Source: Escherichia phage vB_EcoM_JE01. From it: 64,000 bases of DNA. The stretch lies in sequence record PQ471460.1. The stretch is one strand, 5' to 3'. Below, piece after piece: positions 3,101-24,329 of this stretch (the first letter of the stretch is position 1; every line of letters begins with the position of its first letter). Both the position numbers and the translations under genes were made by a program. Below the pieces are notes generated by a model. The model did not search any database. It was given only the letters and a program-made list of their open reading frames with translations, and had not been told where the DNA came from.

Positions 3101-4044
3101 TTTGGACGAATATTAGAATTAGTTGTTATAATGCGTAAACGTGCTTTACTATCCCCGTCAAACAATCTCCACAATTTCTCATTATCATCAAACATCAAGA
3201 AACCGTCAATCGATGTACGGCCTTCAATGGAATGAGTTCCAACTTCTTGTACTGAAGTTGTTTCATCATATGTAGTAACAATTGTGTGATAAAGAGGATT
3301 TAATTTATCCAAATCAACGAAATTAATAATATCGCCATGATTGGCAAATCTTGGAAGTTTAATATTAATTGCTGATGCAGAAGTAAATCTACGTACGATA
3401 AAATCGTTTGATTGCGCCTGATAGAGACTCGCAGGCGTTACAACTACAGCTTCTCTGCTATAATCAGCAACGTACATTTGCCACAGACGATTACTAAAAA
3501 TTAAAACTATCTGTGATTTTGGATGAGTCATTAGTACTGATCGTACTTGCTGACCTCTAAAATTTACAATGCTTTGTACCGGAGCTGTAATTAAAACTTG
3601 ATTAACTCCAGGTTTTCCTCCAATATCTTGGAGAACGATAGTATCACCGTCAATTGGGGTAGATGGTAAAGTAAATGTAATGTCATTACCAGCTGCAGTA
3701 TCAACTGAAATTGATTCGCCTGATTTTAATTGATAAGGTCCTGATGAAACAGTTGTCCAGTTTGCATCAGTACGTAATGCTCTCCAGCGTACGCTATTAA
3801 AAGCTCCTGCTGGTTTTGGAATATCATTTATAGCAGCCCAAAAGCGGTTATCATAAATGATTACAAAATCTTTTAAATATCCACGAGTTGGATCGTATTG
3901 TTGAACTGTGTTTTCTTGAATTAAGTAATCAACGTTGACACCGTCAGTTCCTACGGTACGATCAGCTAAAGCTACGTTGATTATTTTATCGCCACCTGCG
4001 TCCAGACCGTCTTCTGCTCTGAACTTTCTTTTAATCTCGGCCAT
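175..4044 (-). CDS. 34: Long tail fiber proximal subunit gp34
   Basis: 1289-aa ORF with ATG start at 4044; length and repetitive fibrous sequence match remembered T4 gp34; TATAAATA late promoter upstream. Confidence 0.9.
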   Translation of the reverse strand: MAEIKRKFRAEDGLDAGGDKIINVALADRTVGTDGVNVDYLIQENTVQQYDPTRGYLKDFVIIYDNRFWAAINDIPKPAGAFNSVRWRALRTDANWTTVSSGPYQLKSGESISVDTAAGNDITFTLPSTPIDGDTIVLQDIGGKPGVNQVLITAPVQSIVNFRGQQVRSVLMTHPKSQIVLIFSNRLWQMYVADYSREAVVVTPASLYQAQSNDFIVRRFTSASAINIKLPRFANHGDIINFVDLDKLNPLYHTIVTTYDETTSVQEVGTHSIEGRTSIDGFLMFDDNEKLWRLFDGDSKARLRIITTNSNIRPNEEVMVFGANNGTTQTIELQLPTDISVGDTVKISMNYMRKGQTVKIKAAGEDKIASSVQLLQFPKRSEYPPEAEWVTVQELVFNGETNYVPVLELAYIEDSDGKYWVVQQNVPTVERVDSLNDSTRARLGVIALATQAQANADLENSPQKELAITPETLANRTATETRRGIARIATTAQVNQDTTFSFADDIIITPKKLNERTATETRRGVAEIATQQETNAGTDDTTIITPKKLQARQGSESLSGIVTFVSTAGATPASSRELNGTNVYNKNTDNLVVSPKALDQYKATPTQQGAVILAVESEVIAGQSQEGWANAVVTPETLHKKTSTDGRIGLIEIATQSEVNTGTDYTRAVTPKTLNDRRATESLSGIAEIATQVEFDAGVDDTRISTPLKIKTRFNSTDRTSVVALSGLVESGTLWDHYTLNILEANETQRGTLRVATQVEAATGTLDNVLITPKKLLGTKSTEAQEGVIKVATQSETVTGTSANTAVSPKNLKWIVQSEPTWAATTAIRGFVKTSSGSITFVGNDTVGSTQDLELYEKNSYAVSPYELNRVLANYLPLKAKAVDSNLLDGLDSSQFIRRDIAQTVNGSLTLTQQTNLSAPLVSSSTATFGGSVSANSVLTISNTGTETHLIFEKGPQTGTNQAQTVTIRVWGNQFSGESDTTRSTVFEVGDETSNHFYSQRNKAGNITFNINGTVTPINVNASGTLNANGVATFGNSVTATGEIISRSANAFRAINGNYGFIVRNDGSVTNFMFTASGDQTGGFNGLRPLAINNASGQVTIGESLIIAKGATINSGGLTVNSRIRSQGTKTSDLYTRAPTSDTVGFWSIDINDSATYNQFPGYFKMVEKTNEVTGLPYLERGEEVKSPGTLTQFGNTLDSLYQDWITYPTTPEARTTRWTRTWQKTKNSWSSFVQVFDGGNPPQPSDIGALPSDNAIMGNLTIRDFLRIGNVRIVPDPVNKTVKFEWVE

Positions 4045-4148: not shown

Positions 4149-5066
4149 ATGGATTTAGAAATGATGCTGGATGAAGATTACAAAGAAGGAATTTGCTTAA
4201 TTGACTTTAGTCAGATTGCGCTTTCAACTGCTTTAGTAAACTTTCCAGATAAAGAAAAAATTAATTTATCAATGGTTCGTCATTTGATATTGAACTCAAT
4301 TAAGTTTAATGTCAAAAAAGCAAAAACTCTTGGATACACTAAAATTATACTGTGTATCGATAACGCGAAATCTGGATACTGGCGTCGTGATTTTGCTTAT
4401 TATTATAAGAAAAACCGTGGAAAAGCACGAGAAGAATCTACTTGGGACTGGGAAGGTTATTTTGAATCCAGTCATAAAGTTATAGATGAATTGAAAGCTT
4501 ATATGCCATACATTGTTATGGATATTGATAAGTATGAAGCAGATGACCACATTGCTGTTCTTGTTAAAAAATTCTCTTTAGAAGGACATAAGATTTTAAT
4601 CATTTCGTCGGATGGTGACTTTACTCAACTTCATAAATACCCAAACGTTAAGCAATGGTCACCGATGCACAAGAAATGGGTTAAAATTAAAAGCGGTTCT
4701 GCTGAAATTGACTGTATGACTAAAATCCTTAAAGGCGATAAAAAGGATAACGTTGCTTCAGTTAAAGTACGATCTGACTTTTGGTTTACTAGAGTTGAAG
4801 GTGAACGAACTCCTTCAATGAAAACATCTGTTGTTGAAGCTATTGCTAATGACCGTGAGCAAGCTAAGGTGCTTCTCACTGAATCTGAATATAATCGTTA
4901 TAAAGAAAATTTAGTTCTAATTGATTTTGATTATATTCCTGATAATATTGCTTCAAACATTGTGAATTACTATAATTCATATAAATTACCACCGCGTGGC
5001 AAAATTTATTCATATTTTGTAAAAGCGGGTCTTTCTAAATTAACTAATAGCATTAATGAATTTTGA
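4149..5066 (+). CDS. rnh: RNase H (5'-3' exonuclease / flap endonuclease)
   Basis: ORF-track start 4134 is TTG; first ATG 4149 has GAGG SD and gives a 305-aa protein MDLEMMLDEDYKEGICLIDF... matching remembered T4 RNase H. Confidence 0.9.
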   Translation: MDLEMMLDEDYKEGICLIDFSQIALSTALVNFPDKEKINLSMVRHLILNSIKFNVKKAKTLGYTKIILCIDNAKSGYWRRDFAYYYKKNRGKAREESTWDWEGYFESSHKVIDELKAYMPYIVMDIDKYEADDHIAVLVKKFSLEGHKILIISSDGDFTQLHKYPNVKQWSPMHKKWVKIKSGSAEIDCMTKILKGDKKDNVASVKVRSDFWFTRVEGERTPSMKTSVVEAIANDREQAKVLLTESEYNRYKENLVLIDFDYIPDNIASNIVNYYNSYKLPPRGKIYSYFVKAGLSKLTNSINEF

Positions 5067-5074
5067 GGTGAATA

Positions 5075-5344
5075 ATGGCTAAAAAAGAAATGGTTGAATT
5101 TGATGAAGCTATCCATGGCGAAGACTTGGCTAAATTTATTAAAGAAGCATCTGATCATAAACTGAAAATTTCCGGTTATAATGAATTGATTAAAGATATT
5201 CGAATTCGTGCTAAAGATGAACTTGGCGTTGATGGAAAGATGTTTAATCGTTTATTAGCTTTGTATCATAAAGATAACCGTGATGTGTTTGAAGCTGAAA
5301 CTGAAGAGGTAGTTGAACTTTATGACACAGTTTTCTCTAAATGA
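5075..5344 (+). CDS. dsbA: DsbA double-stranded DNA-binding protein (late transcription)
   Basis: 89-aa ORF with GAGGTG SD; size and position between rnh and gene 33 as in T4. Confidence 0.8.
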   Translation: MAKKEMVEFDEAIHGEDLAKFIKEASDHKLKISGYNELIKDIRIRAKDELGVDGKMFNRLLALYHKDNRDVFEAETEEVVELYDTVFSK

Positions 5345-5660
5345 TATTCGTCCGGTCGATGAGACCGGTCTTTCAGAAAAAGAACTTTCAATTAAGAAAG
5401 AAAAGGATGAAATTGCAAAACTGCTTGATCGTCAAGAAAATGGATTTATTATTGAAAAAATGGTAGAAGAGTTTGGAATGAGTTATCTTGAAGCTACAAC
5501 AGCATTCTTGGAAGAAAATTCTATTCCTGAAACCCAATTTGCTAAATTTATTCCTTCGGGTATAATTGAAAAAATTCAGTCAGAAGCTATCGACGAAAAT
5601 CTTTTACGTCCTTCTGTTGTTCGTTGTGAAAAAACTAATACATTAGATTTTCTACTATGA
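5322..5660 (+). CDS. 33: gp33 late-transcription co-activator
   Basis: ATG at 5322 (track start 5313 is TTG); 112 aa MTQFSLNDIRPVDETGLSEKELSIKKEKDE... matches remembered T4 gp33. Confidence 0.85.
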   Translation: MTQFSLNDIRPVDETGLSEKELSIKKEKDEIAKLLDRQENGFIIEKMVEEFGMSYLEATTAFLEENSIPETQFAKFIPSGIIEKIQSEAIDENLLRPSVVRCEKTNTLDFLL

Positions 5661-6310
5661 TTAAACTCCGCATGCCTGCTGGTGGTGAAAGATACATTGA
5701 TGGTAAATCAGTTTATAAATTATACTTAATGATAAAACAACATATGAATGGAAAGTATGATGTAATTAAGTATAATTGGTGCATGCGGGTGTCTGATGCC
5801 GCTTATCAAAAGCGAAGGGATAAGTATTTTTTCCAGAAGTTATCAGAAAAATATAAATTAAAGGAACTTGCTTTAATCTTTATAAGCAATCTGGTTGCTA
5901 ACCAGGATGCTTGGATTGGTGACATCTCTGACGCTGATGCACTTGTGTTTTATCGTGAATATATCGGACGCTTAAAGCAAATTAAATTTAAGTTTGAAGA
6001 AGATATTCGCAACATTTATTATTTTAGTAAAAAAGTTGAAGTTTCTGCTTTTAAAGAAATTTTTGAATATAATCCAAAAGTTCAATCAAGTTATATTTTT
6101 AAACTACTTCAATCGAATATAATTTCGTTTGAGACGTTTATCTTGCTTGATTCGTTTTTAAATATAATTGATAAACATGATGAACAGACTGATAATTTAG
6201 TCTGGAATAATTATTCTATAAAGTTAAAGGCTTATAGAAAAATTTTAAATATTGATTCGCAGAAAGCCAAAAGTGTTTTTATTGAAACTGTGAAATCATG
6301 CAAGTATTAA
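5657..6310 (+). CDS. 59: gp59 helicase loader
   Basis: 217-aa ORF, ATGA overlap with gene 33 stop, directly upstream of gene 32. Confidence 0.9.
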   Translation: MIKLRMPAGGERYIDGKSVYKLYLMIKQHMNGKYDVIKYNWCMRVSDAAYQKRRDKYFFQKLSEKYKLKELALIFISNLVANQDAWIGDISDADALVFYREYIGRLKQIKFKFEEDIRNIYYFSKKVEVSAFKEIFEYNPKVQSSYIFKLLQSNIISFETFILLDSFLNIIDKHDEQTDNLVWNNYSIKLKAYRKILNIDSQKAKSVFIETVKSCKY

Positions 6311-6335
6311 TTGCTTATTATAAATAGATTATAAT
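6311..6335 (+). promoter_or_regulatory. Promoter cluster upstream of gene 32: MotA-box-like TGCTT, late TATAAATA and a TATAAT -10
   Basis: tgctta 6313..6318; tataaata 6319..6326; tataat 6330..6335. Confidence 0.45.
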
Positions 6336-6343
6336 TATCTCAC

Positions 6344-6409
6344 TGACCAGCTATGAGGTCATACATCGTCATAGCACCAACTGTTAATTAAATTAAAAAG
6401 GAAATAAAA
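6344..6409 (+). promoter_or_regulatory. Gene 32 autogenous translational operator: mRNA pseudoknot plus unstructured A/U-rich leader
   Basis: Stem 1 tgacc 6344..6348 / ggtca 6357..6361; stem 2 gctatga 6350..6356 / tcatagc 6368..6374 (interleaved = pseudoknot); then ttaattaaattaaaaaggaaataaaa up to the ATG. Confidence 0.7.
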
Positions 6410-7318
6410 ATGTTTAAACGTAAATCTACTGCTGAACTCGCTGCACAAATGGCTAAACTGGCTGGAAATAAAGGTGGTTTTTCTTCTGAAGATAAAGGCG
6501 AGTGGAAACTGAAACTCGATAATGCGGGTAACGGTCAAGCAGTAATTCGTTTTCTTCCGTCTAAAAATGATGAACAAGCACCATTCGCAATTCTTGTAAA
6601 TCACGGTTTCAAGAAAAACGGTAAATGGTATATCGAAAATTGCTCATCTACCCACGGTGATTACGATTCTTGCCCAGTATGTCAGTACATCAGTAAAAAT
6701 GATTTGTATAACACTGACAATAAAGAGTACGGTCTTGTTAAACGTAAAACTTCTTACTGGGCTAACATTCTTGTAGTAAAAGACCCAGCTGCTCCAGAAA
6801 ATGAAGGTAAAGTATTTAAATATCGTTTCGGTAAGAAAATCTGGGATAAAATCAACGCAATGATTGCAGTTGATGTTGAAATGGGTGAAACCCCAGTTGA
6901 TGTAACTTGTCCGTGGGAAGGTGCTAACTTTGTACTGAAAGTTAAACAAGTTTCTGGTTTTAGTAACTACGATGAATCTAAATTCCTGAATCAATCTGCG
7001 ATTCCAAACATTGATGATGAATCTTTCCAGAAAGAACTGTTCGAACAAATGGTTGACCTTTCTGAAATGACTTCTAAAGATAAATTCAAATCGTTTGAAG
7101 AACTGAGCACTAAGTTCAGTCAAGTTATGGGAACTGCTGCTATGGGTGGTGCCGCAGCAACTGCCGCTAAGAAAGCTGATAAAGTTGCTGATGATTTGGA
7201 TGCATTCAATGTTGATGACTTCAAAACAAAAACTGAAGATGATTTTATGAGCTCAAGCTCTGGCAGTTCATCTAGTGCTGATGACACGGACCTGGATGAC
7301 CTTTTGAATGACCTTTAA
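6410..7318 (+). CDS. 32: gp32 single-stranded DNA-binding protein
   Basis: 301 aa; [50 protein letters not shown]..., acidic serine-rich C-terminus; matches remembered T4 gp32. Confidence 0.95.
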
Positions 7319-7340
7319 TAGATTATATTACTAATTAATT

Positions 7341-7366
7341 GGGGACCCTAGAGGTCCCCTTTTTTA
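7341..7366 (+). terminator. Rho-independent terminator after gene 32
   Basis: ggggaccctagaggtcccc hairpin followed by tttttt. Confidence 0.7.
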
Positions 7367-7390
7367 TTTCAAAATTTTTTTCACAAAACT

Positions 7391-7420
7391 GTTTACAACC
7401 AAAGCATACTGTGGTACTAT
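7391..7420 (+). promoter_or_regulatory. Early promoter (GTTTAC -35, TACTAT -10)
   Basis: gtttac 7391..7396, tactat 7415..7420. Confidence 0.4.
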
Positions 7421-7466
7421 ACAACTATCGGCAATACTGCTGATGATGATTAAAGAGGAAAATAAC

Positions 7467-7694
7467 ATGGCTAAAATTGATATTGATGTTGTTGATTTTG
7501 AATATATTGAAGAAATTATTCGTAATCGTTATCCTGAACTCCGTATCATAAGCGCACTAAATGATCCTAATTGCAATGTTTCAGTTGTTATTGAAGGTCC
7601 TTTAAATCGTCTTAAACAATTTATGGTTAATGAATATTGTGACGGTATGGATGCTGAAGATGTAGAATTTTACACAGGATTTATTGAGCAGTAA
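7467..7694 (+). CDS. Small early ORF in the 32-frd interval (frd.3-like), function unknown
   Basis: ATG 7467 preceded by AAGAGGA SD; ORF track lists 7443..7694. Confidence 0.6.
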
Positions 7695-7738
7695 TTATTA
7701 AGGGGCTATCAAGCCCCTATTAAAATGAGGAAAACACA

Positions 7739-8104
7739 ATGTATATTGGTAGAAAATATGAACTTGTTCCAAGACTTATTGATACATTTATTAATTATCG
7801 CCCGCGTTCTAATTCATCAATAGTTAAAATTATTCAAGAAAATGGCGGATGGTTTGAAGTTAAAGAAGCTTTCTTTGCTGATGGATTTAGAGTAATAAAA
7901 CACATTGAATGCGCTAATGGAAAGCATTTTTACTTCAACGTCTGTGAAGACGAATTTCATTGTTTCCGCGAGTATAAAGAACTGACTTCTGAAGAAGATG
8001 AAGTCGAAGACAAGATTTCTGGCGTAACAAAAATTCACTGCATTGTAGACGAAAACAATGTAGATGAAATCATTGAACTTTTGCGAAAAACTTTCAAAAA
8101 GTAG
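7739..8104 (+). CDS. Small early ORF in the 32-frd interval (121 aa), function unknown
   Basis: ATG with GAGGA SD; several Cys/His residues. Confidence 0.6.
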   Translation: MYIGRKYELVPRLIDTFINYRPRSNSSIVKIIQENGGWFEVKEAFFADGFRVIKHIECANGKHFYFNVCEDEFHCFREYKELTSEEDEVEDKISGVTKIHCIVDENNVDEIIELLRKTFKK

Positions 8105-8133
8105 TTTACAGAAGGGTAGTAGTGTGATACTAT
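8104..8133 (+). promoter_or_regulatory. Early promoter (GTTTAC -35, TACTAT -10)
   Basis: gtttac 8104..8109, tactat 8128..8133; short inverted repeat agggt/accct brackets the -10. Confidence 0.4.
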
Positions 8134-8158
8134 TACCCTATCAACTAAGGAGAATAAA

Positions 8159-8401
8159 ATGAGATTACAACGTCAGAGCATCAAAGATTCAGAAGTTAAA
8201 GGTAAATGGTATTTTAATATCATCGGTAAAGATTCTGAACTTGTTGAAAAAGCTGAACATCTTTTACGTGACATGGGGTGGGAAGATGAATGTGATGGAT
8301 GCCCTCTTTATGAAGATGGAGAAAGCGCAGGATTCTGGATTTACCATTCTGACGTTGATCAGTTTAAAGCTGATTGGAAAATTGTGAAAAAGTCTATTTG
8401 A
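8159..8401 (+). CDS. Small early ORF (80 aa), function unknown
   Basis: ATG with AAGGAG SD; contains a CDGC motif. Confidence 0.6.
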   Translation: MRLQRQSIKDSEVKGKWYFNIIGKDSELVEKAEHLLRDMGWEDECDGCPLYEDGESAGFWIYHSDVDQFKADWKIVKKSI

Positions 8402-8411
8402 GGAAAATAAT

Positions 8412-8654
8412 ATGATTTTTGTATTTGAATTTATGAATGATGAATTCGATTATGCAATTTTTAACGCATTGCATAATCCTGATTTAAATGAATTTAATGA
8501 AATGTTTTCTGACGCTTTGAGTATGTCAGAAGAATACTGCGGAGAATGTCAACGTGTTTGTGTGACAGTCTTTGAAAACAAAGAAAAGACATATGAAGAA
8601 TTATTCTTTGACGCTAATAAAGCCACTGAATGGTTTATTGAAAGGGGATTTTGA
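8412..8654 (+). CDS. Small early ORF (80 aa), function unknown
   Basis: ATG with GAGGA SD; CGEC motif. Confidence 0.55.
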   Translation: MIFVFEFMNDEFDYAIFNALHNPDLNEFNEMFSDALSMSEEYCGECQRVCVTVFENKEKTYEELFFDANKATEWFIERGF

Positions 8655-9242
<588 letters not shown>

Positions 9243-9262
9243 AATAACACGTGGCGGAAAAT

Positions 9263-9610
9263 ATGAGCTTTAATTATTACCCTATTCTATTAGAAAAAGA
9301 CGCGAAACAACCAAAATGGCAGGGTCCTCAGTTTATTAAAGGTGTCTATCAATTAGTAGTTCCTAAAGACAAAATTTATAGCAGTTGTTTCACTGAATCC
9401 GCTTGCAGTATTTTTGGTAATAGTTCTCCGTATTGGAATTTTGATATAAAGCTGGATAGAAATATCGATATTTGGTTGAAAGCTATGGATATTGGCAATA
9501 TCACGTTTGATGAGAATAATTATCATATTATTGGTCGTTTTTCCAAACGTGGTAAAGAATTATATTTCATGCCTGAAATTGAAAGAAAATTTGACGCTAA
9601 ACCGTATTGA
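9263..9610 (+). CDS. Hypothetical protein between frd and td (about 115 aa from first ATG; ORF track start 9251 is GTG)
   Basis: Uninterrupted ORF 9251..9610; no motif recognised; T4 has no gene here as I remember it. Confidence 0.5.
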   Translation: MSFNYYPILLEKDAKQPKWQGPQFIKGVYQLVVPKDKIYSSCFTESACSIFGNSSPYWNFDIKLDRNIDIWLKAMDIGNITFDENNYHIIGRFSKRGKELYFMPEIERKFDAKPY

Positions 9611-9655
9611 TTATTTAGCTTCATAAAATGTATTATAATTTATATAAGGTACTAA

Positions 9656-10204
9656 ATGAAACAATACCAAGATTTAATTAAAGACATTTTTGAAAATGGC
9701 TATGAAACCGATGACCGAACAGGCACAGGAACAATTGCTTTGTTCGGTACTAAATTACGCTGGGATTTAACTAAAGGTTTTCCTGCGGTAACAACTAAGA
9801 AGCTCGCCTGGAAAGCTTGCATTGCTGAGCTAATATGGTTTTTATCGGGAAGCACAAATGTCAATGATTTACGATTAATTCAGCATGATTCATTAATTCA
9901 AGGCAAAACAGTCTGGGATGAAAATTACGAAAATCAAGCAAAAGATTTAGGATACCATAGCGGTGAACTTGGTCCAATTTATGGAAAACAGTGGCGTGAT
10001 TTTGGTGGTGTAGACCAAATTGTAGAAGTTATTGATCGTATTAAAAAACTACCAAATGATAGGCGTCAAATTGTTTCTGCGTGGAATCCAGCTGAACTTA
10101 AATATATGGCATTACCGCCTTGTCATATGTTCTATCAGTTTAATGTGCGTAATGGCTATTTGGATTTGCAGTGGTATCAAAGAAGTGTAGATGTTTTCTT
10201 GGGT
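9656..10204 (+). CDS. td: Thymidylate synthase, exon 1
   Basis: MKQYQDLIKDIFENGYETDDRTGTGTIALFG...QRSVDVFLG matches remembered T4 TS exon 1; the in-frame TAA at 10205..10207 is the first codon of the intron. Confidence 0.9.
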
Positions 10205-11220
10205 TAATTGAGGCCTGAGTATAAGGTGACTTATACTTGTAATCTATCTAAACGGGGAAACTCTCTAGTAGACAATCCCGTGCTAAATTGTAGGACCACC
10301 CTTTAATAAATACCTTTATATTTAAAGAGGTATTTATGAAAAGTGGAATTTATCAGATTAAAAATACTTTAAACAATAAAGTATATGTAGGAAGTGCTAA
10401 AGATTTTGAAAAGAGATGGAAGAGGCATTTTAAAGACTTAGAAAAAGGATGCCATTCTTCTATAAAACTTCAAAGGTCTTTTAACAAACACGGTAATGTG
10501 TTTGAATGCTCTATTTTGGAAGAAATTCCATATGAGAAAGATTTGATTATTGAACGAGAAAATTTTTGGATTAAAGAGCTTAATTCTAAAATTAATGGAT
10601 ATAATATTGCTGATGCAACGTTTGGTGATACATATTCTGTGCATCCATTAAAAGAAGAAATTATTAAGAAACGTTCTGAAACTGTTAAAGCTAAGATGCT
10701 TAAGCTTGGAACTGATGGTCGGAAAGCTCTTTACGGTAAACCCGGAAGTAAAAACGGACGATGGAATCCAGAAAAACACAAATTTTGTAAGTGCGGTGTT
10801 CGTATACAAACTTCTGCTTATACTTGTAGTAAATGCAGAAATCGTTCAGGTGAAAATAATTCATTCTTTAATCATAAGCATTCAGACATAACTAAATCTA
10901 AAATATCAGAAAAGATGAAAGGTAAAAAGCCTAGTAATATTAAAAAGATTTCATGTGATGGGGTTATTTTTGAATGTGCAGCTGACGCAGCTAGACATTT
11001 TGAAATTTCATCCGGATTAGTTACTTACCGTGTAAAATCTGATAAGTGGAATTGGTTCTACATAAATGCCTAACGACTATCCCTTTAGGGAGTAGGGTCA
11101 AGTGACTCGAAACGATAGACAACTTGCTTTAACAAGTTGGAGATATAGTCTGCTCTGTATGGTGACATGCAGCTGGATATAATTCCGGGATAAGATTAAC
11201 GACCTTATCTGAACATAATG
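10205..11220 (+). mobile_element. td group I self-splicing intron (1016 nt) carrying the I-TevI ORF
   Basis: Begins taattgaggcctgagtataaggtgac... and ends ...gaacataatg (terminal G) as remembered for the T4 td intron; length equals the T4 value. Confidence 0.85.
10336..11073 (+). CDS. I-TevI GIY-YIG homing endonuclease (intron-encoded)
   Basis: 245 aa; N-terminal GIY-YIG module KSGIYQIKN...KVYVGSAKD; Zn finger CKCGVRIQTSAYTCSKC; inside the td intron. Confidence 0.9.
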   Translation: MKSGIYQIKNTLNNKVYVGSAKDFEKRWKRHFKDLEKGCHSSIKLQRSFNKHGNVFECSILEEIPYEKDLIIERENFWIKELNSKINGYNIADATFGDTYSVHPLKEEIIKKRSETVKAKMLKLGTDGRKALYGKPGSKNGRWNPEKHKFCKCGVRIQTSAYTCSKCRNRSGENNSFFNHKHSDITKSKISEKMKGKKPSNIKKISCDGVIFECAADAARHFEISSGLVTYRVKSDKWNWFYINA

Positions 11221-11532
11221 CTTCCATTCAACATTGCATCATATGCTGCATTAGTTCATATTGTAGCTAAGATGTGTAATCTTATTCCAGGAGATTTGAT
11301 ATTTTCTGGTGGTAATACTCATATCTATATGAATCACGTAGAACAATGTAAAGAAATTTTGCGTCGTGAACCTAAAGAGCTCTGTGAACTGGTAATAGGC
11401 GGATTGCCTTATAAATTCCGCTATCTTTCTACTAAAGAACAATTGGAATACATTCTTAAACTCAGGCCTAAAGATTTCGTTCTCAAAGATTATCAGTCCC
11501 ATGGTGTCTTGAAAGGAAAAATGGCGGTGTAA
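11221..11532 (+). CDS. td: Thymidylate synthase, exon 2
   Basis: LPFNIASYAALVHIVAKMCNLIPGDLIFSGGNTHIYMNHV... continues the TS frame; exons 1+2 total 286 aa. Confidence 0.9.
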   Translation, partial: LPFNIASYAALVHIVAKMCNLIPGDLIFSGGNTHIYMNHVEQCKEILRREPKELCELVIGGLPYKFRYLSTKEQLEYILKLRPKDFVLKDYQSHGVLKGKMAV

Positions 11533-11555
11533 TTTTAATTTAATTGAGAGGATAT

Positions 11556-11819
11556 ATGATTTTACGATTTAAGGATACTTCTGGTGTCGTTCTTTTTACA
11601 CTTCCTAACCCAAGTGAGTTAGAAGTTCCAGGACCAAATCAGCCTATTATCATTTATGGCAAAAAATATTATACTCATAAAATGACCCGTGAGTATTTTG
11701 ATAATAAAATTTCCACAGTTAAAACTTCTTCTGACTGTTATTATGATATTACTGTTTTAACGGAAAAACAATATGACGAATTATCACCGCACGGGCCGTC
11801 TATGCCAGGTAGTGAATAA
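11556..11819 (+). CDS. Small ORF between td and nrdA (nrdA.2-like), function unknown
   Basis: ATG 11556 with GAGAGGA SD (track start 11544 is TTG). Confidence 0.6.
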
Positions 11820-12099
11820 ATATAAATCCGACTTTGATGTTAATATTCACCGTGGTACATTTTGGGGAAATTACGTCGGTAAAGATGCTGGCAGCCGGGA
11901 GGCTGCCATTGAATTATTCAAAAAAGATTTTATACGTCGAATTAAATCCGGAGAAATAACTAAAGCACATTTAGAGCCTTTACGTGGAATGAGGCTAGGA
12001 TGCACATGTAAACCAAAGCCGTGTCATGGTGATATAATAGCTCATATAGTTAACCGATTGTTTAAAGACGATTTTCAAGTTGAGGACTTATGCAATTAA
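11773..12099 (+). CDS. Small ORF between td and nrdA (nrdA.1-like), function unknown
   Basis: 108-aa ORF overlapping neighbours; CxC...CHGD motif. Confidence 0.55.
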
Positions 12100-14354
12100 T
12101 TAATGTTATCAAAAGTAGTGGTGTTTCTCAGAGCTTTGACCCGCAAAAAATTATTAAAGTTTTATCTTGGGCAGCTGAAGGAACATCTGTAGATCCTTAT
12201 GAATTATATGAAAATATTAAATCATATCTCCGTGATGGAATGACAACTGATGACATTCAGACTATTGTCATTAAGGCTGCTGCGAATTCTATTTCAGTTG
12301 AAGAGCCTGATTATCAATACGTAGCCGCTCGCTGTTTAATGTTTGCTCTTCGTAAGCATGTTTACGGACAATATGAACCACGTTCATTTATTGACCATAT
12401 TTCTTACTGTGTAAATGAAGGTAAATATGACCCTGAACTGCTGTCAAAATATTCAGCAGAAGAAATTACATTTTTAGAATCAAAAATTAAGCACGAGCGG
12501 GATATGGAATTTACTTATTCCGGGGCGATGCAATTAAAAGAAAAATATCTCGTTAAAGATAAAACCACTGGTCAAATTTATGAAACTCCGCAGTTTGCAT
12601 TTATGACTATTGGAATGGCATTGCATCAAGATGAACCCGTTGATAGACTAAAACACGTTATTCGTTTTTATGAAGCAGTATCTACTCGACAGATTTCACT
12701 GCCAACTCCTATTATGGCTGGTTGTCGTACTCCAACTCGGCAGTTTAGTTCATGCGTTGTTATTGAGGCAGGTGATTCGCTGAAGTCTATCAATAAGGCT
12801 TCCGCTTCAATTGTTGAGTATATTTCTAAACGAGCTGGAATTGGCATTAACGTTGGTATGATTCGTGCCGAAGGTTCTAAGATTGGCACAGGTGAAGTGC
12901 GTCATACTGGTGTTATTCCTTTTTGGAAACATTTTCAGACTGCTGTTAAATCATGCTCACAGGGTGGAATTCGTGGCGGCGCTGCTACTGCTTATTATCC
13001 TATTTGGCATTTGGAAGTTGAAAATCTTCTCGTTTTGAAAAATAACAAAGGCGTAGAAGAAAACCGTATTCGTCATATGGATTATGGCGTTCAACTGAAT
13101 GACCTAATGATGGAACGATTCGGAAAGAACGACTACATTACCTTGTTCAGTCCGCATGAAATGGGTGGCGAGCTTTATTATTCTTATTTTAAAGACCAAG
13201 ACCGTTTCCGTGAATTATATGAAGCCGCAGAAAAAGACCCTAATATTCGTAAAAAGCGTATTAAAGCCCGTGAACTGTTTGAATTGCTCATGACTGAACG
13301 ATCAGGAACAGCAAGGATTTATGTACAGTTCATTGATAATACGAATAACTATACTCCATTTATTCGTGAAAAGGCACCTATTCGTCAGAGTAACTTGTGT
13401 TGTGAAATTGCTATTCCAACAAATGATGTGAATAGTCCTGATGCTGAAATTGGATTGTGTACCCTTAGCGCATTCGTGTTGGATAACTTCGATTGGCAAG
13501 ACCAAGATAAAATTAATGAATTAGCAGAAGTTCAAGTTCGCGCTCTTGATAATCTTTTGGATTACCAAGGATATCCAGTTCCTGAAGCAGAAAAAGCTAA
13601 AAAGCGTCGAAATCTTGGTGTAGGTGTTACTAACTATGCAGCTTGGCTGGCAAGTAACTTTGCTTCTTATGAAGATGCTAACGATTTAACACATGAACTA
13701 TTTGAGAGATTACAGTATGGACTCATTAAAGCATCCATTAAGCTCGCCAAAGAAAAAGGACCTTGCGAATATTATTCAGACACTCGTTGGTCTCGAGGCG
13801 AATTACCTATCGACTGGTACAATAAAAAGATTGACCAAATCGCAGCTCCAAAATACGTTTGTGACTGGTCGTCGCTGCGGGAAGACCTTAAGCTCTTTGG
13901 CATCCGTAATAGCACATTATCAGCACTTATGCCATGTGAGTCATCTTCCCAAGTTTCTAACAGTACAAACGGTATCGAGCCTCCACGTGGACCAGTCTCT
14001 GTTAAAGAATCAAAAGAGGGTTCCTTTAATCAAGTCGTGCCCAATATTGAGCATAACATAGACCTCTATGATTATACGTGGAAATTAGCTAAGAAAGGCA
14101 ATAAACCTTATCTTACGCAGGTAGCTATTATGCTGAAATGGGTATGTCAATCAGCTTCAGCGAATACATATTATGACCCGCAGATTTTTCCAAAAGGAAA
14201 GGTTCCAATGTCTGTAATGATTGATGACCTTTTGTACTTTTGGTATTTTGGCGGAAAAAATTTCTATTATCATAATACCCGCGACGGTTCTGGTACTGAT
14301 GATTATGAAATAGAAACTCCAAAAGCTGAAGATTGTTCATCCTGTAAATTATGA
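12090..14354 (+). CDS. nrdA: Aerobic ribonucleotide reductase large subunit
   Basis: 754 aa; ATP-cone N-terminus and catalytic region (CEIAIP, C-terminal CSSCKL); matches T4 NrdA length. Confidence 0.95.
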   Translation: MQLINVIKSSGVSQSFDPQKIIKVLSWAAEGTSVDPYELYENIKSYLRDGMTTDDIQTIVIKAAANSISVEEPDYQYVAARCLMFALRKHVYGQYEPRSFIDHISYCVNEGKYDPELLSKYSAEEITFLESKIKHERDMEFTYSGAMQLKEKYLVKDKTTGQIYETPQFAFMTIGMALHQDEPVDRLKHVIRFYEAVSTRQISLPTPIMAGCRTPTRQFSSCVVIEAGDSLKSINKASASIVEYISKRAGIGINVGMIRAEGSKIGTGEVRHTGVIPFWKHFQTAVKSCSQGGIRGGAATAYYPIWHLEVENLLVLKNNKGVEENRIRHMDYGVQLNDLMMERFGKNDYITLFSPHEMGGELYYSYFKDQDRFRELYEAAEKDPNIRKKRIKARELFELLMTERSGTARIYVQFIDNTNNYTPFIREKAPIRQSNLCCEIAIPTNDVNSPDAEIGLCTLSAFVLDNFDWQDQDKINELAEVQVRALDNLLDYQGYPVPEAEKAKKRRNLGVGVTNYAAWLASNFASYEDANDLTHELFERLQYGLIKASIKLAKEKGPCEYYSDTRWSRGELPIDWYNKKIDQIAAPKYVCDWSSLREDLKLFGIRNSTLSALMPCESSSQVSNSTNGIEPPRGPVSVKESKEGSFNQVVPNIEHNIDLYDYTWKLAKKGNKPYLTQVAIMLKWVCQSASANTYYDPQIFPKGKVPMSVMIDDLLYFWYFGGKNFYYHNTRDGSGTDDYEIETPKAEDCSSCKL

Positions 14355-14405
14355 TATAATTTGACTCACGGACGAGTCACTATCTATTAACTAAGCGGAA
14401 AATTT

Positions 14406-15584
14406 ATGAGCACAGTTTTTAATACAAACCCAGTTGATGTTTTAAAAGAACCTATGTTCTTCGGTTCAGGTCTTGGTATTGCGCGTTATGATATTCAACG
14501 TCATAAAGTTTTTGAAGATTTAACCGAAAAGCAGTTGTCATTTTTCTGGCGTCCTGAAGAAGTAAACTTAATGATGGATGCTGCACAATTTAACAAGCTT
14601 CCTCAATATCAGCAAGATATTTTTACTAATAATCTGAAGTATCAATCACTTCTAGATAGCATTCAGGGTCGTGCGCCATCTGCTGTACTTATGTCATTAA
14701 TTTCAGACCCAAGTCTTGATACATGGGTTGCTACATGGACTTTTAGTGAAACTATTCACAGTCGTTCATATACTCATATCATGCGAAATCTTTATACTGA
14801 TCCATCGAAGGTATTTGATGAGATTGTACTAGATGAAGCTATCATGAAACGTGCTGAATCTATCGGTCGCTATTATGATGATGTTCTGACTAAAACCCGT
14901 GAATGGGAAAATGCTAAAGAATTTACAGAACTAGCTAAAGAATCTCCTGATGCTGTTTTTCGTTTAAATCGAGCTATTAAACAAGAAGCCGAAGCTAAAC
15001 GAGCACTAATGAAATCTCTTTACCTCTGTTTGCACGTTATTAATGCCTTAGAAGCTATTCGTTTTTATGTATCTTTTGCATGTACCTTTAACTTCCATAA
15101 GAACATGGAAATCATGGAAGGTAATGCCAAGATTATGAAGTTCATTGCACGTGATGAGCAGCTTCACCTTAAAGGCACACAATATATTATTCGTCAACTT
15201 CAATCCGGTACTGATGGCGATGAATGGGTTAAAATTGCTCAAGAGTGTGAACAAGAAGCAGTTGATATTTTCATGGAAGTTAACCGCCAAGAAAAAGATT
15301 GGGCAGTTCATTTATTTAAAGATGGCGATGTTCCTGGATTAAATACAAATAGCATGTGGAGCTTTATTGATTACTTAACTGTATCTCGTATGAAACAGTG
15401 CGGTCTTCCATGCCCAATTACCGATGCTCCGGTTAAACATCCATATCCTTGGATTCGTGAATATCTTAATTCTGATAATGTTCAATCCGCGCCACAAGAA
15501 GTAGAACTGTCATCTTACCTTGTTGCACAGATTGATAATGATGTTGATGATAAAGTTATGATGAGTTTTAAAAAATACTTTTAA
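14406..15584 (+). CDS. nrdB: Aerobic ribonucleotide reductase small subunit (continuous, no intron)
   Basis: 392-aa uninterrupted ORF with di-iron/tyrosyl-radical R2 features. Confidence 0.9.
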   Translation: MSTVFNTNPVDVLKEPMFFGSGLGIARYDIQRHKVFEDLTEKQLSFFWRPEEVNLMMDAAQFNKLPQYQQDIFTNNLKYQSLLDSIQGRAPSAVLMSLISDPSLDTWVATWTFSETIHSRSYTHIMRNLYTDPSKVFDEIVLDEAIMKRAESIGRYYDDVLTKTREWENAKEFTELAKESPDAVFRLNRAIKQEAEAKRALMKSLYLCLHVINALEAIRFYVSFACTFNFHKNMEIMEGNAKIMKFIARDEQLHLKGTQYIIRQLQSGTDGDEWVKIAQECEQEAVDIFMEVNRQEKDWAVHLFKDGDVPGLNTNSMWSFIDYLTVSRMKQCGLPCPITDAPVKHPYPWIREYLNSDNVQSAPQEVELSSYLVAQIDNDVDDKVMMSFKKYF

Positions 15585-15587
15585 GGA

Positions 15588-15607
15588 GTGGGCCGCAAGG
15601 CCCATTT
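15588..15607 (+). terminator. Stem-loop with GCAA tetraloop and T-run between nrdB and denA; sits between the denA SD and ATG
   Basis: tgggccgcaaggccca followed by tttt; AAGGAG SD at 15584..15589 lies about 22 nt from the denA ATG unless the hairpin forms. Confidence 0.55.
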
Positions 15608-15611
15608 TATT

Positions 15612-17199
<1,588 letters not shown>

Positions 17200-17202
17200 G
17201 CT

Positions 17203-17256
17203 GTTTACAAGTCCCTCGTGTTGTGTTATAGTAGACTTACTGACATAACATGAGGA
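17203..17256 (+). repeat. Copy A of a ~54-bp repeat containing an early promoter (GTTTAC...TATAGT) and SD, upstream of alc
   Basis: gtttacaagtccctcgtgttgtgttatagta[gac]ttactgacataacatgagga; near-identical copy at 32896..32949. Confidence 0.8.
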
Positions 17257-17260
17257 CTTT

Positions 17261-17767
17261 ATGATGGATTTACAGCTTATTACTACTGAAATGGTCGTTG
17301 AAGCATATGGTGATACTACAGATGGGATTTCTGTATTTAAAGGAAATCGTCGAGTTGGATATATCACCGATCTTAAGAAAGATTTAGCTAAGCAAGTCAA
17401 GCGGAAAACGACCATTAAAGAATATCGAAATCGTCGTCTTGAGCAAGCCCGTGATATGCTTCCTGATGCGGTTGAGGAGATGAAAGTCTTTTTAGAAAAT
17501 CAGCTTGCGAAATATGATTGTGATGTGTTCATTAATCAGACTCAACCTAATGTTCATATCAATAATTGTAAATGCTACATCATCGTTAATCCTTTGACGG
17601 GAAAACATCGTCTTGGAATTAGTAATCCAAATCGTAGTGCATCAGATATGGCAGAAGATGTTGAGGCATGCTTTAAAATTTCTAAATCTCCGGCTGAACA
17701 TCATATTTTAATTAACGGTCTTTCTCAAGACGATATTGTAGAGGTTATTAAAACTTTATGCAATTAA
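17261..17767 (+). CDS. alc: Alc, inhibitor of host transcription elongation
   Basis: 168-aa ORF immediately after rnlA, as in T4 (Alc 167 aa). Confidence 0.8.
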   Translation: MMDLQLITTEMVVEAYGDTTDGISVFKGNRRVGYITDLKKDLAKQVKRKTTIKEYRNRRLEQARDMLPDAVEEMKVFLENQLAKYDCDVFINQTQPNVHINNCKCYIIVNPLTGKHRLGISNPNRSASDMAEDVEACFKISKSPAEHHILINGLSQDDIVEVIKTLCN

Positions 17768-18111
17768 GTAATACGACAGCAGGTTTGTTATTAATTGTAA
17801 TTGCATTGGGCGGAACTTCTTTAATTTTAAAAAATAAAATTGAAAGATTAGAAACGTCTGTTGTAGAAATTACAAAAACGGCCAATGAAAACGCTTTAGC
17901 ATTAGATAATTTGCGAATTCAGTATAATTATATTGATGCGATGAATAATAAAAATCGTGAGGCAATTGCTGCTATTGAGCGTGAAAATGAAAAACTGCGC
18001 AAAGACGCAAAGAAGGCGGATGTGGTGGCTCATAAGCCAGGATTGGTTGAAAAACAAATCAACAACTCCTTCAACAAGTTCGCAGAAGACATCCAGGACC
18101 TTTCTAAATGA
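17758..18111 (+). CDS. Predicted membrane-anchored coiled-coil protein (117 aa)
   Basis: N-terminal hydrophobic segment TAGLLLIVIALGGTSLIL, then charged helical region. Confidence 0.55.
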   Translation: MQLSNTTAGLLLIVIALGGTSLILKNKIERLETSVVEITKTANENALALDNLRIQYNYIDAMNNKNREAIAAIERENEKLRKDAKKADVVAHKPGLVEKQINNSFNKFAEDIQDLSK

Positions 18112-18407
18112 TTAAACTATCGGCAGTAATATTATCTATTGGTCTTCTAGTTGGTTGTTCGACAAAGCCTCTAGAAGTAAAGAAAGAAACAGTTCATCCT
18201 AATTGGCCTGTGCAAATAAAGTCATATGACGAAGCTAAACTATCTTGGCAAGTTAAAGTTATTGATGGTAAAGCTTGGGTCGGTATGCCATTTGAAGATT
18301 CCCAGGAATTTCGCATTTGGCTTAATGATGTAAAACGATATGTACATGACCAGAAAACTATGATATGTTATTATCGTCAAGAGCTAAAAGAGGATAAATG
18401 TAAATGA
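18108..18407 (+). CDS. Predicted lipoprotein (99 aa)
   Basis: Signal peptide MIKLSAVILSIGLLVGC with lipobox LVGC. Confidence 0.55.
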   Translation: MIKLSAVILSIGLLVGCSTKPLEVKKETVHPNWPVQIKSYDEAKLSWQVKVIDGKAWVGMPFEDSQEFRIWLNDVKRYVHDQKTMICYYRQELKEDKCK

Positions 18408-18630
18408 TTTCATGGCATCAATTTGAACATCTCAAAGGATTGATTTATGAATCCGAGATGGCTGCAATGATTTATGGACGCCAGATTCAACGATTAGAAT
18501 CTTTGCCTCCAACTAATGATGTTTTATTAGCTCAATCACGCGCTAATCTTAAAAATGAATACCAAAATAAGTGGGGTAAAGCATCTAAAGACCTGCATGA
18601 TTATATTCAATCATTGGTTGAGAAAAATAA

Positions 18631-18634
<4 letters not shown>
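18404..18634 (+). CDS. Small early ORF (76 aa), function unknown
   Basis: ATG overlapping previous stop. Confidence 0.5.
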
Positions 18635-19852
<1,218 letters not shown>

Positions 19853-19853
<1 letters not shown>

Positions 19854-20050
19854 TGGCTTTGCATCATGAAACTTGGGCTATTGTTATTGTAAATAGCGGT
19901 TTAGTTGGTACTAGTAATGGGCAATTTTGTGTATTCACTAGTGAAATTAGAGCTTGGGAGGAATGTCTTAAATTAAGAGAAAAGAATCCTGATGTTGAAC
20001 TAACAGTAAAGAAAACTAAACTGCCTTTACCATGGAAAACTTATGAATAA
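19853..20050 (+). CDS. Small early ORF (65 aa), function unknown
   Basis: Translationally coupled ORF in pseT-cd interval. Confidence 0.5.
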
Positions 20051-20243
20051 CATAGAAAAGATTTATCGACTTTGTGATAAAATTGAAAAAGAAAAGAAAT
20101 ATCTATTTTGTTTATGGCCTATTGTTGATGGAAGAGTAGGCTTAGATGTTCTTGATTATGAAACAGAAGACAAAGTAGATGGTTCAGTTTTTGATAACGC
20201 TTTGGATGTTATTGATTGGCTTGAAGAAAATTATGTGAGGTAA
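20043..20243 (+). CDS. Small early ORF (66 aa), function unknown
   Basis: Overlaps neighbours. Confidence 0.5.
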   Translation: MNNIEKIYRLCDKIEKEKKYLFCLWPIVDGRVGLDVLDYETEDKVDGSVFDNALDVIDWLEENYVR

Positions 20244-20245
20244 AT

Positions 20246-20521
20246 ATGTTTCCGACTTATTCTAAAATCGTAGAAGTAGTGTTTAGCCAAATTATCGCTA
20301 ATAATATGTTTGAAAAGCTTGATACCGCAGCTGAGCTTCGAATCCACGCTCAAGTGACTCATGTATTGAACGCTTTGCTTCCAGACCAAGTGGATTCTAT
20401 TGCAATTACGCTGTATCCAGGTTCCGCGCATATCATTGTCGTATTTGGTCTTGATGCTGAGTTAGTTATCAAGGGCGATATTCGCTTTGAATCACAGACA
20501 TCAGAATTCAAAGCAATTTAA
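20246..20521 (+). CDS. Small early ORF (91 aa), function unknown
   Basis: ATG 3 nt after previous stop. Confidence 0.5.
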   Translation: MFPTYSKIVEVVFSQIIANNMFEKLDTAAELRIHAQVTHVLNALLPDQVDSIAITLYPGSAHIIVVFGLDAELVIKGDIRFESQTSEFKAI

Positions 20522-20523
20522 CA

Positions 20524-20553
20524 GTTTACTTTACGATAGAGTTGTGATATTAT
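20524..20553 (+). promoter_or_regulatory. Early promoter (GTTTAC -35, TATTAT -10)
   Basis: gtttac 20524..20529; tattat 20548..20553; inverted repeat tagag/ctcta brackets the -10. Confidence 0.4.
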
Positions 20554-20583
20554 AGCTCTACCAAAACAAATGAGGAAATTGAA

Positions 20584-21111
20584 ATGAGCGAATGGTTTGA
20601 AGAAGGTAAGGTTTATCGCTTTAAAGCTGGATATAAAGATATTTTTAATGAAACTTGCGGGGCTAATAAACGAATTGCCCAGTTTATTGGGGAAAATTCA
20701 TTTAAAGTAAAAATAGATCCTGCGAAAAATGTTATTAGCATTAAACGCGAAATTGATGATTGTTGGTATAAAGCTGTTGATGTAATGGGTGAATCCTATA
20801 AAGTTAGCCCGTTATTTTCAATTGCCTATATGTTAGAATATTCTTTTTTCGAAGAAGTTCAAAAAGATGATTCTGTCAGTAAATTTGAAATTAAAGCTGA
20901 TAAAGAAATTAAGTGGAAAGTAGTAGGTATTACTGGTTGTATGTTCTATATCTATGCTCAAACTGATACGAAGGAAGAAGCTAAACAGAAAGCTCTAGAA
21001 TATCTTGAAGAGTATGAAGAAGGTCCGGTAATGATTACTCAAGATGCTGAATTAGTTTCTGTCAAATTAGTTAAAAACGTTGAAAGTAAGGAGCTAGGAT
21101 CAACATGCTAA
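20584..21111 (+). CDS. Hypothetical protein (175 aa)
   Basis: ORF with GAGGA SD. Confidence 0.55.
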   Translation: MSEWFEEGKVYRFKAGYKDIFNETCGANKRIAQFIGENSFKVKIDPAKNVISIKREIDDCWYKAVDVMGESYKVSPLFSIAYMLEYSFFEEVQKDDSVSKFEIKADKEIKWKVVGITGCMFYIYAQTDTKEEAKQKALEYLEEYEEGPVMITQDAELVSVKLVKNVESKELGSTC

Positions 21112-21341
21112 GTGAAAAACCAATTACTGTTAAAGAATTCCAAGAAAAAGTTAAACTATTTGCTCAAGAATTGGTAAATAAGGTTTCTGAACGATTTCCT
21201 GAAACGTCGGTTCGTGTTATTACCGAAACTCCTCGTTCAGTATTAGTAATTGTGAATCCAGGTGATGGTGACCAAATAACACATCTTAAACTGGATTTTG
21301 ATGGATTAGTTGAAGCACAAAGGGTGTATGGCGTACTATGA
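21105..21341 (+). CDS. Small early ORF (78 aa), function unknown
   Basis: Overlapping start/stop with neighbours. Confidence 0.5.
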   Translation: MLSEKPITVKEFQEKVKLFAQELVNKVSERFPETSVRVITETPRSVLVIVNPGDGDQITHLKLDFDGLVEAQRVYGVL

Positions 21342-21676
21342 TGAATTTAACTGATATAATTGATAATTGTCTTGAAAATGATACTGGCGATCATAGAGCG
21401 CTTGATTCTGAAACAGCTCAGTTCATTAGAATAACTTTAATGAACGATACTCTAGTGAATAGTATTCATCCTTCTGTGTATGATGCTATTATTGTGACGA
21501 AGTACCCAGTTGAGCTTCACAAAAAGATGGCTGGTGCAATTTTTATTGATAAGAAAAACCGCTTTAAAGACGGGCAGAATATAATTAGTTCTGTTATTAA
21601 AAGTATAACTAAACTTCGTCACGAAATTTATCGTGTTGAAACTGCTAAATCTGCTTATCTGGTGATTATGAAATGA
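21338..21676 (+). CDS. Small early ORF (112 aa), function unknown
   Basis: ATGA overlap with cd. Confidence 0.5.
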   Translation: MMNLTDIIDNCLENDTGDHRALDSETAQFIRITLMNDTLVNSIHPSVYDAIIVTKYPVELHKKMAGAIFIDKKNRFKDGQNIISSVIKSITKLRHEIYRVETAKSAYLVIMK

Positions 21677-22254
21677 AAGCGAGTACAGTACTTCAAATTG
21701 CATATTTAGTATCACAAGAATCCAAATGTTGCTCCTGGAAGGTAGGAGCGGTAATTGAAAAGAATGGACGTATTATTTCTACTGGATATAACGGTTCTCC
21801 GGCAGGTGGTGTGAATTGTTGTGATTATGCTGCCGAGCAAGGTTGGTTGCTGAATAAGCCTAAATATACTATCATTCAAGGTCATAAGCCTGAATGCGTA
21901 TCGTTTGGTTCAACTGACCGTTTTGTTTTGGCGAAAGAACACCGCAGCGCTCACTCTGAATGGTCGTCTAAAAATGAAATTCATGCTGAACTAAATGCGA
22001 TTTTGTTTGCTGCACGAAATGGTTCTTCAATTGAAGGTGCTACTATGTATGTAACACTTTCTCCTTGCCCAGATTGCGCAAAAGCGATAGCTCAATCTGG
22101 AATTAAAAAGTTGGTTTATTGTGAAACATACGATAAAAATAAACCTGGCTGGGATGATATTCTGCGAAATGCGGGTATTGAAGTGTTTAATGTTCCTAAG
22201 AAAAACTTGAATAAGTTAAACTGGGAAAATATCAACGAATTCTGTGGTGAATAA
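21673..22254 (+). CDS. cd: dCMP deaminase
   Basis: 193 aa; zinc-binding HAE (HAELNAI) and PCxxC (SPCPDCAKAI) motifs. Confidence 0.9.
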   Translation: MKASTVLQIAYLVSQESKCCSWKVGAVIEKNGRIISTGYNGSPAGGVNCCDYAAEQGWLLNKPKYTIIQGHKPECVSFGSTDRFVLAKEHRSAHSEWSSKNEIHAELNAILFAARNGSSIEGATMYVTLSPCPDCAKAIAQSGIKKLVYCETYDKNKPGWDDILRNAGIEVFNVPKKNLNKLNWENINEFCGE

Positions 22255-22490
22255 TGAAATTTCGTTTGGTACAACTCACAGCAATTAGTTCTTATTCCAA
22301 CGAGAACATTTCATTTGCTGTAGAGTATAAGAAGTATTTTTTCTCTAAATGGAAGCAGTATTATAAGTCAAACTGGGTTTGTATTGATAGACCGCATAGT
22401 TGGAAGTCTGATTTAGAAAAATGCCAAAAATTGCTTTCCACTCTTAAAGAACGTGGAACAACTCATATTAAAACTGTAATAGGTAAATAA
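22254..22490 (+). CDS. Small ORF between cd and 31 (78 aa)
   Basis: ATGA overlap with cd stop. Confidence 0.5.
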   Translation: MKFRLVQLTAISSYSNENISFAVEYKKYFFSKWKQYYKSNWVCIDRPHSWKSDLEKCQKLLSTLKERGTTHIKTVIGK

Positions 22491-23884: not shown

Positions 23885-23890
23885 GTTGAG

Positions 23891-24327: not shown

Positions 24328-24329
24328 TT

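Follow-up and report, generated by a model that had tools for sequence, protein, structure and literature searches.

Probable vertical inheritance of an accessory gene between frd and td of Escherichia phage vB_EcoM_JE01, with the frd/td overlap of T4 as its likely repeat-mediated deletion state

In phage T4, the genes frd (dihydrofolate reductase, DHFR) and td (thymidylate synthase) overlap by the four nucleotides ATGA; in NC_000866, frd lies at 145109-145690 and td ends at 145112. This overlap was described correctly in an earlier note on the DNA studied here, a stretch of 64,000 nucleotides from Escherichia phage vB_EcoM_JE01 (PQ471460.1; the window). In the window, frd runs to 9242 and td begins only at 9656, with an open reading frame (ORF) of 115-119 codons between the two, coordinates that all held. 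The locus raises the question of what this ORF, here called gene A, represents, and of whether its segment was inserted into a tightly coupled operon, as the earlier note proposed, or was lost from T4. The analysis indicated that the segment very probably is a vertically inherited accessory gene and that the T4 overlap is probably the state left by a repeat-mediated deletion.

The features of the locus are given in Table 1. The gene A frame was open from GTG 9251 (119 codons) or from ATG 9263 (115 codons) to the stop codon at 9608-9610. ATG 9263 is the likely start, because GGCGGA stands before it at a 4-nt spacing, the homologs open with MNFNYYP, and the T2 gene is annotated from the same ATG. 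GGCGGA would act as the ribosome-binding site of gene A, and the spacer between frd and gene A was near-identical across seven Tequatrovirus alleles. The Frd protein of the window shared 87% identity with the Frd of T2 and of T4, and 96-99% with that of WilhelmHis and of the IMG/VR contig L012. Over positions 5000-25000, the window, the DNA of a Tequatrovirus, was identical to none of the phage-collection records and closest to vB_EcoM_IME340 among them (96.6% over 99% of 20 kb). The Rfam scan of 8000-12200 returned the group I intron of td only, with no match in the frd-td gap. The intron was matched by Intron_gpI at 10942-11172 with 31.6 bits. This score falls short of the gathering threshold (50), and the presumable reason is that the ribozyme core is split by the ORF inside the intron.

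Table 1. Positions of the frd-td features in the window
Feature	Position	Strand	Basis or remark
frd (dihydrofolate reductase, 194 aa)	8658..9242	+	ORF list; DHFR annotation in all matching phage records
Direct repeat TAAATGAAA, left copy	9236..9244	+	Spans the frd stop; repeat search and T4 alignment
frd-to-gene-A spacer, 20 nt	9243..9262	+	Weak Shine-Dalgarno-like GGCGGA
Gene A, 115 aa, PHROG 1928 family, predicted single beta-rich domain	9263..9610	+	PHROG match, dN/dS, HMMER, AF2
Sigma-70-like hexamers TTGATT-18-TATTAT	9607-9636	+	
Gene-A-to-td spacer, 45 nt	9611..9655	+	Conservation; candidate td promoter and ribosome-binding site
Candidate MotA-type middle promoter	9614..9641	+	Box TTTAGCTTCA 9614-9623; -10 TATAAT 9634-9639 or TAATTT 9636-9641
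Putative td Shine-Dalgarno AAGG	9646-9649	+	6 nt upstream of the td ATG
Direct repeat TAAATGAAA, right copy	9653..9661	+	Spans the td start codon
td exon 1 (thymidylate synthase)	9656..10204	+	ORF list, locus comparison, Rfam
td intron, group I	10208-11217		Contains a full-length 245-aa I-TevI ORF at 10336-11073
td exon 2	about 11218-11532		

Gene A is already known as an annotated, conserved accessory gene, and it is recorded as a hypothetical protein in T2, T6, RB14 and about 360 Tequatrovirus records. By tblastn, it was detected in 554 phage records. At least 90% amino acid identity was found in 362 of them, including T2, RB14 (where the feature is labelled RB32ORF229c), RB7 and RB33, and less than 60% in the other 192, which were Klebsiella, Enterobacter, Citrobacter and other T4-like phages. 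The T6 genome carries the segment too, with a coverage of 100% for the junction query. Alignment of the junction with T4 bore out the ATGA overlap there; the ORF, presented in the earlier note as an extra one, was present, annotated and conserved at this site in T2, T6, RB14, RB7 and RB33. In the literature on RB32ORF229c, the frd-td junction and Tequatrovirus accessory or anti-defence genes, nothing relevant was found, and the ORF is not discussed in the review of Petrov 2010.

The PHROG 1928 profile matched gene A with an E value of 2.7e-35, and residues 4-111 were aligned to profile positions 2-125 of 126. The motifs of this family, whose domain measures about 95-120 aa, are Q(K/P)KW, HG(I/V)Y, GN and IGRFxKxGxxxxF, and all were present in gene A. 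In the alignment of 23 family members, Q16, W19, G27, G91, K95 and G97 were invariant. Gene A had no match in Pfam (run on the ORF and all 23 members), NCBIfam or PADLOC, and none in the PDB by sequence, with either a single-sequence or a profile query. The remark that the ORF belongs to no recognisable family held for these four collections and failed for PHROG. Searches seeded with distant members reached Erwinia phage Cronus, Pectobacterium phage PM2 and Serratia phage CHI14, as well as Salmonella phage S16, Cronobacter phage Pet-CM3-4, Kosakonia phage Kc304 and others. Moreover, only about 20 true clusters, all of single-domain proteins of 95-119 aa, came out when HMMER was run exhaustively against 1.84 billion representative proteins, while the word-indexed homolog search recovered 3 proteins only. 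The family was confined to T4-like phages of Enterobacterales, and no paralog of gene A was found elsewhere in the window.

Selection on gene A was estimated with seven Tequatrovirus alleles (window, T2, WilhelmHis and four IMG/VR contigs). For allele pairs at dS of 0.2-0.3, the dN/dS was 0.03-0.08, indicating strong purifying selection. In addition, mononucleotide shuffling of the 413-bp gap, repeated 20,000 times, produced 115 or more consecutive codons without a stop in only 20 cases (frequency 0.001). The idea that the ORF stayed open merely by chance within a non-coding spacer, which would fit its lack of a Pfam family, is hardly credible given this selection and this frequency, the homologs that retain the conserved motifs down to 26% identity, and the confident fold prediction described below. 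As a side observation, an indel at the 3' end of gene A (about 3340-3354) in the contigs L012 and L013 changed the C-terminus from ...AKPY* to ...AKPLII*. It shifts the stop codon into the conserved spacer and leaves the spacer sequence unaltered.

The surroundings of gene A were compared in related loci from GenBank (Jiaodavirus, Kanagawavirus, Marfavirus and Moonvirus), 14 IMG/VR contigs and two Logan contigs. Gene A stood directly 3' of frd in 24 of the 24 loci with a homolog. The order frd-A-(B)-(C)-td was found in all 23 loci that extend far enough, the contig of L025 ending before td. Distant homologs (26-65% identity) were located 3' of frd in at least six other genera. In these genera, the identity to the window proteins was 42-54% for Frd, 26-65% for gene A and 78-86% for Td, as expected from the co-inheritance of a fast-evolving small gene. 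The start of gene A overlapped the frd stop in most loci outside Tequatrovirus, which suggests translational coupling of the two genes in those phages.

Between frd and td, as many as three small genes formed an array with the fixed order A, B and C. Gene B, which is paralogous to A (hhalign probability 99.1%) and stands in tandem with it, also belongs to PHROG 1928. Gene C, of 68-69 aa, is not related to A and belongs to PHROG 9550. The full array A-B-C, with C between B and td, was found in L024, L014, L015 and Marfavirus F48. A and B were found in Kanagawavirus IME523, Moonvirus CF1, L016 and L018-L023. Gene A alone was carried by the window, T2, T6, most Tequatrovirus, Jiaodavirus and L017, and gene C alone by the EC121-type Tequatrovirus (135 records with an identity of at least 90%). 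The T4-type junction, with none of the three, accounted for 32 records. The counts of 362 (A), 135 (C) and 32 (empty) roughly cover the 536 records that matched the junction region. Since C follows A and B in L024, L014, L015 and F48, the two Tequatrovirus alleles would be alternative survivors of one array.

Some further observations concern gene C and the neighbouring boundary. Gene C was located at 1340-1546 in L009 (EC121), at 4670-4879 in L024 and at about 2648-2848 in L007. It was better conserved across genera than A and B, the L024 copy being 81-84% identical to those of L007, L014 and L015, and the unrelated Phapecoctavirus phages, phAPEC8 among them, had homologs with 40-44% identity. 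The F48 record annotates only a 42-aa piece of gene C, although almost all of the gene was aligned by tblastn. Between frd.1 (8159-8401) and frd, the window has a second small ORF that T4 lacks (8412-8654, 80 aa, PHROG 3183). The corresponding place in T4 is filled by an unrelated sequence of about 70 nt, frd.1 and frd almost abut in L012 from IMG/VR, and L010 likewise lacks the 80-aa ORF. Because this ORF is variably present, the frd.1-frd boundary is another presence/absence slot.

The empty junction was rare. A 45-mer across the T4 junction was found in 32 records only, about half of which were T4 itself or T4 fragments; the others were RB55, RB59, vB_EcoM_112, HY03, SG1, G28, F1, JEP6, FN, FL18, FL12 and G2133. 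The two copies of TAAATGAAA in the window were 417 bp apart, being exact over 9 bp and extending to 13 of 15 positions over 9236-9250. The T4 junction held one repeat copy, and when one copy was taken out of the window along with the sequence between the copies, 417 bp in all, the T4 sequence GTATATAAATGAAACAATACC resulted exactly. Over the terminal 150 nt of frd and the initial 150 nt of td, T4 and the window were 96-97% identical, and the frd stop codon and the td start codon were the same. In T4, the loss of DNA between short direct repeats is a classic and well documented mutational route, reportedly treated in the work on rII deletions (Pribnow et al. 1981; Singer and Westlye 1988).

Which of the two junctions is older was judged from their distribution. 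All outgroup genera had an occupied slot, so that by parsimony the empty T4 junction is derived. The T4 ATGA overlap therefore appears to be secondary, a deletion derivative, with a polarity taken from phylogenetic distribution rather than from a formal ancestral-state reconstruction. The opposite reading would make the overlap ancestral and the 417-bp ORF segment an insertion in the JE01 lineage, with TAAATGAAA duplicated at the target site or through microhomology. In formal terms, a segment between two repeats is symmetric, and an insertion at microhomology would leave the same 9-15-bp repeats, which flank the segment exactly here; the left copy also resembles a truncated td start (ATG AAA TAA), and the slot is clearly plastic. 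We nevertheless consider an insertion improbable. The same slot 3' of frd was filled by homologs in every other genus examined, with a divergence that tracks Frd, and the segment had neither a mobility gene nor a convincing terminal inverted repeat. The empty site was neither the majority state nor, by the outgroups, the ancestral one, and it was limited to near-identical records whose flanks nest among A-bearing alleles. The T4 frd was nearest to the A-bearing L010 and L013 (96-97% DNA identity) and the T4 td exon 1 to the A-bearing window and T2 (96%), although such nearest-relative arguments are weakened by the mosaic nature of the region. The claim of an insertion into a tightly coupled operon was thus reversed in its polarity, the T4 overlap being the rare and apparently derived state. 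The T4 junction could alternatively have come from the C-only allele via AATGA repeats. The mosaicism itself was observed by comparing 8658-9242 and 9656-10204 of the window with L001, L004, L005 and L009-L013. Two allele classes were seen among Tequatrovirus for frd (about 87-88% and 95-98% DNA identity to the window) and two for td exon 1 (about 83-85% and 92-97%), and they combined independently, which points to local mosaicism around the slot.

The second suggestion of the earlier note, a remnant of a mobile element, was not supported. The segment's only ORF showed no similarity to a transposase, integrase or nuclease in Pfam and NCBIfam, the best inverted repeat near the segment ends was an AT-rich one of 18 nt with 78% complementarity, and the gene was fixed in position under purifying selection. 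The supposed link to the td intron was also contradicted, for T2 has the ORF and an uninterrupted td, T4 has the intron without the ORF, and the window has both. A more specific form of this idea is that gene A is a degenerate or novel homing endonuclease, or what is left of one, which would fit the neighbourhood of the td intron. The label "putative homing endonuclease" is indeed attached to gene A in the BASEL phages WilhelmHis, TadeuszReichstein, AugustSocin and KarlGJung and in ValerieMcCarty04, and a short G(I/V)YQL string in the protein resembles the N-terminus of I-TevI. We hold this reading to be very improbable. In hhalign, the family profile matched the I-TevI of the window with a probability of 0.6% over 8 residues (G-I/V-Y-Q), the second half of the GIY-YIG motif was not conserved in the family, and the GIY-YIG, HNH and LAGLIDADG models of Pfam were matched by none of the 23 members. 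Furthermore, the presence of gene A was independent of the td intron. Homing endonuclease genes occur sporadically, and gene A, with its purifying selection, fixed position and vertical co-divergence, behaves in the contrary way. The label in these records (MZ501113 bas35_0069, MZ501106, MZ501052, MZ501089 and OR271596 VMC04_249) was not supported by the profile and structure comparisons. The same applied to the label "putative dihydrofolate reductase" in HMD-9, Kelasse and ESCO58.

The spacer between gene A and td was 100% identical in seven of the seven Tequatrovirus alleles, while the adjoining ORF had a dS of 0.2-0.3. This invariance next to diverged synonymous sites indicates constraint. 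A MotA-box-like arrangement, GCTTCA-N12-TAATTT, was placed at 9618-9641 and is, under the MotA box consensus of T4, a lead for a middle promoter. The window contained 20 occurrences of the pattern GCTTYA-N10-13-TANNNT where 9.7 were expected, a number attained in none of the shuffles; the sites likely include real middle promoters of the JE01 phage. Thirteen of the 20 sites were on the + strand, and examples stand at 1811, 21561, 40592, 41742 and 53832. For td in the A-bearing phages, a separate ribosome-binding site is probable and a separate middle promoter possible. Gene A is presumably co-transcribed with frd and td, because it lies on the same strand and no terminator-like site was found in 8000-10400. 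T4 lacks the 417 bp between the repeats and with them the td spacer, the putative ribosome-binding site and the candidate promoter, and its td would be start/stop-coupled to frd.

The AlphaFold2 model of gene A, built from the alignment of 23 members, had a mean pLDDT of 92.2 and a pTM of 0.84, with eight strands and one helix. Comparison of the model with PDB structures gave no significant match. The weak hits were mostly OB folds (HIN, Cdc13, Teb1, S1, SSB, RPA14/32 and Stn1-Ten1), and the strand-helix order was compatible with an OB fold, the best of these hits being below significance. The family was mildly basic (median pI 8.6) and aromatic-rich, with W19, Y29, F93, F102, K95 and R92 invariant or nearly so, and no catalytic motif was evident. 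As modelled, the product would be a soluble, mildly basic protein of about 13 kDa with one compact beta-rich domain, possibly OB-like. Gene A is dispensable, because T4 and the C-only phages lack it, and on this point the accessory gene named in the earlier note was the right description. Any role would be conditional, since growth is possible in its absence, as in T4 with its relatives and in the 135 C-only records.

Several functions can be considered for this protein. Tentatively, gene A may encode a binding protein that is dispensable, has no enzymatic activity and is produced along with DHFR. It would be a putative partner or adaptor of Frd or of the machinery for dNTP precursors, or a binder of a ligand or nucleic acid. 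A putative role in host takeover, counter-defence or host adaptation, functionally independent of frd and td and with the slot being merely permissive, is about equally plausible and no less tentative. The latter would suit a gene that T4 and the C-only phages do without, that is small and fast-evolving (26-65% where Td keeps about 80%), that has a tandem paralog and lineage-specific losses, and whose family is restricted to T4-like phages of Enterobacterales; many small early genes of the T-even phages likewise sit in permissive slots. It is harder to reconcile with the adjacency to frd, which was kept across all genera, often with the start overlapping the frd stop, and there was no similarity to a known anti-defence protein and no match related to PADLOC. 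That gene A is a putative single-stranded nucleic-acid-binding protein with an OB-like fold is a rather unlikely proposal, drawing on the weak structural hits. More speculative still, A and B might be an undescribed small beta-fold, coupled stoichiometrically to DHFR, that modulates folate/thymidylate or dNTP synthesis or shields this pathway from a host defence or an antifolate-like stress. If this were true, the textbook T4 would be a natural knockout of the system.

Taken together, the history of the locus may be outlined as follows. Gene A would have taken its place immediately 3' of frd before the split of the enterobacterial T4-like genera and stayed there, and the A-B-C array would have been trimmed differently by lineage. 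Most Tequatrovirus would have kept A, the phages of about 135 records C alone, and the small T4 clade none. The ATGA overlap of T4 would have arisen by the loss of 417 bp between the TAAATGAAA repeats, which lie in the frd stop and td start contexts. Gene A may be useful in some hosts and unneeded in the laboratory hosts of T4. This history would correct a T4-centred expectation, in that the frd/td overlap appears as a derived state of a small clade and not as the ground plan of the T-even phages. The slot also illustrates neatly how small accessory genes are lost from T4-like genomes, with the breakpoints falling exactly on start/stop junctions. The product of gene A, a confidently folding orphan domain kept beside frd in many genera, is a reasonable candidate for functional study. 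Nothing at this slot pointed to a new kind of system.

The comparison with known systems was in agreement with this. The PHROG 1928 members RB32ORF229c (RB32/RB14), EcT2_00240/BBF63391.1 of T2 and bas35_0069 of BASEL are the same gene as gene A of the window. The T2, RB14 and RB7 proteins were 96-99% identical to it, had equal length and occupied the same frd-td position. Relative to T2, the window has S2 for N2 and M103 for T103, with no other material difference. In the EC121-type allele, the slot and the gene-boundary junctions are those of the window, and they are filled with the small gene C of PHROG 9550. This gene overlaps frd by ATGA and td by TAATG, and its protein is unrelated to gene A. 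Like OB-fold domains such as SSB, RPA, S1 and HIN, the gene A product is predicted to be small and beta-rich with one helix between strands, but neither a significant structural match nor a sequence relationship connects them. The seg and mob genes of the T-even phages and I-TevI resemble gene A in being small ORFs between conserved nucleotide-metabolism genes whose presence varies among close relatives. Unlike them, gene A has no nuclease domain and is deeply conserved at a fixed position under strong purifying selection.
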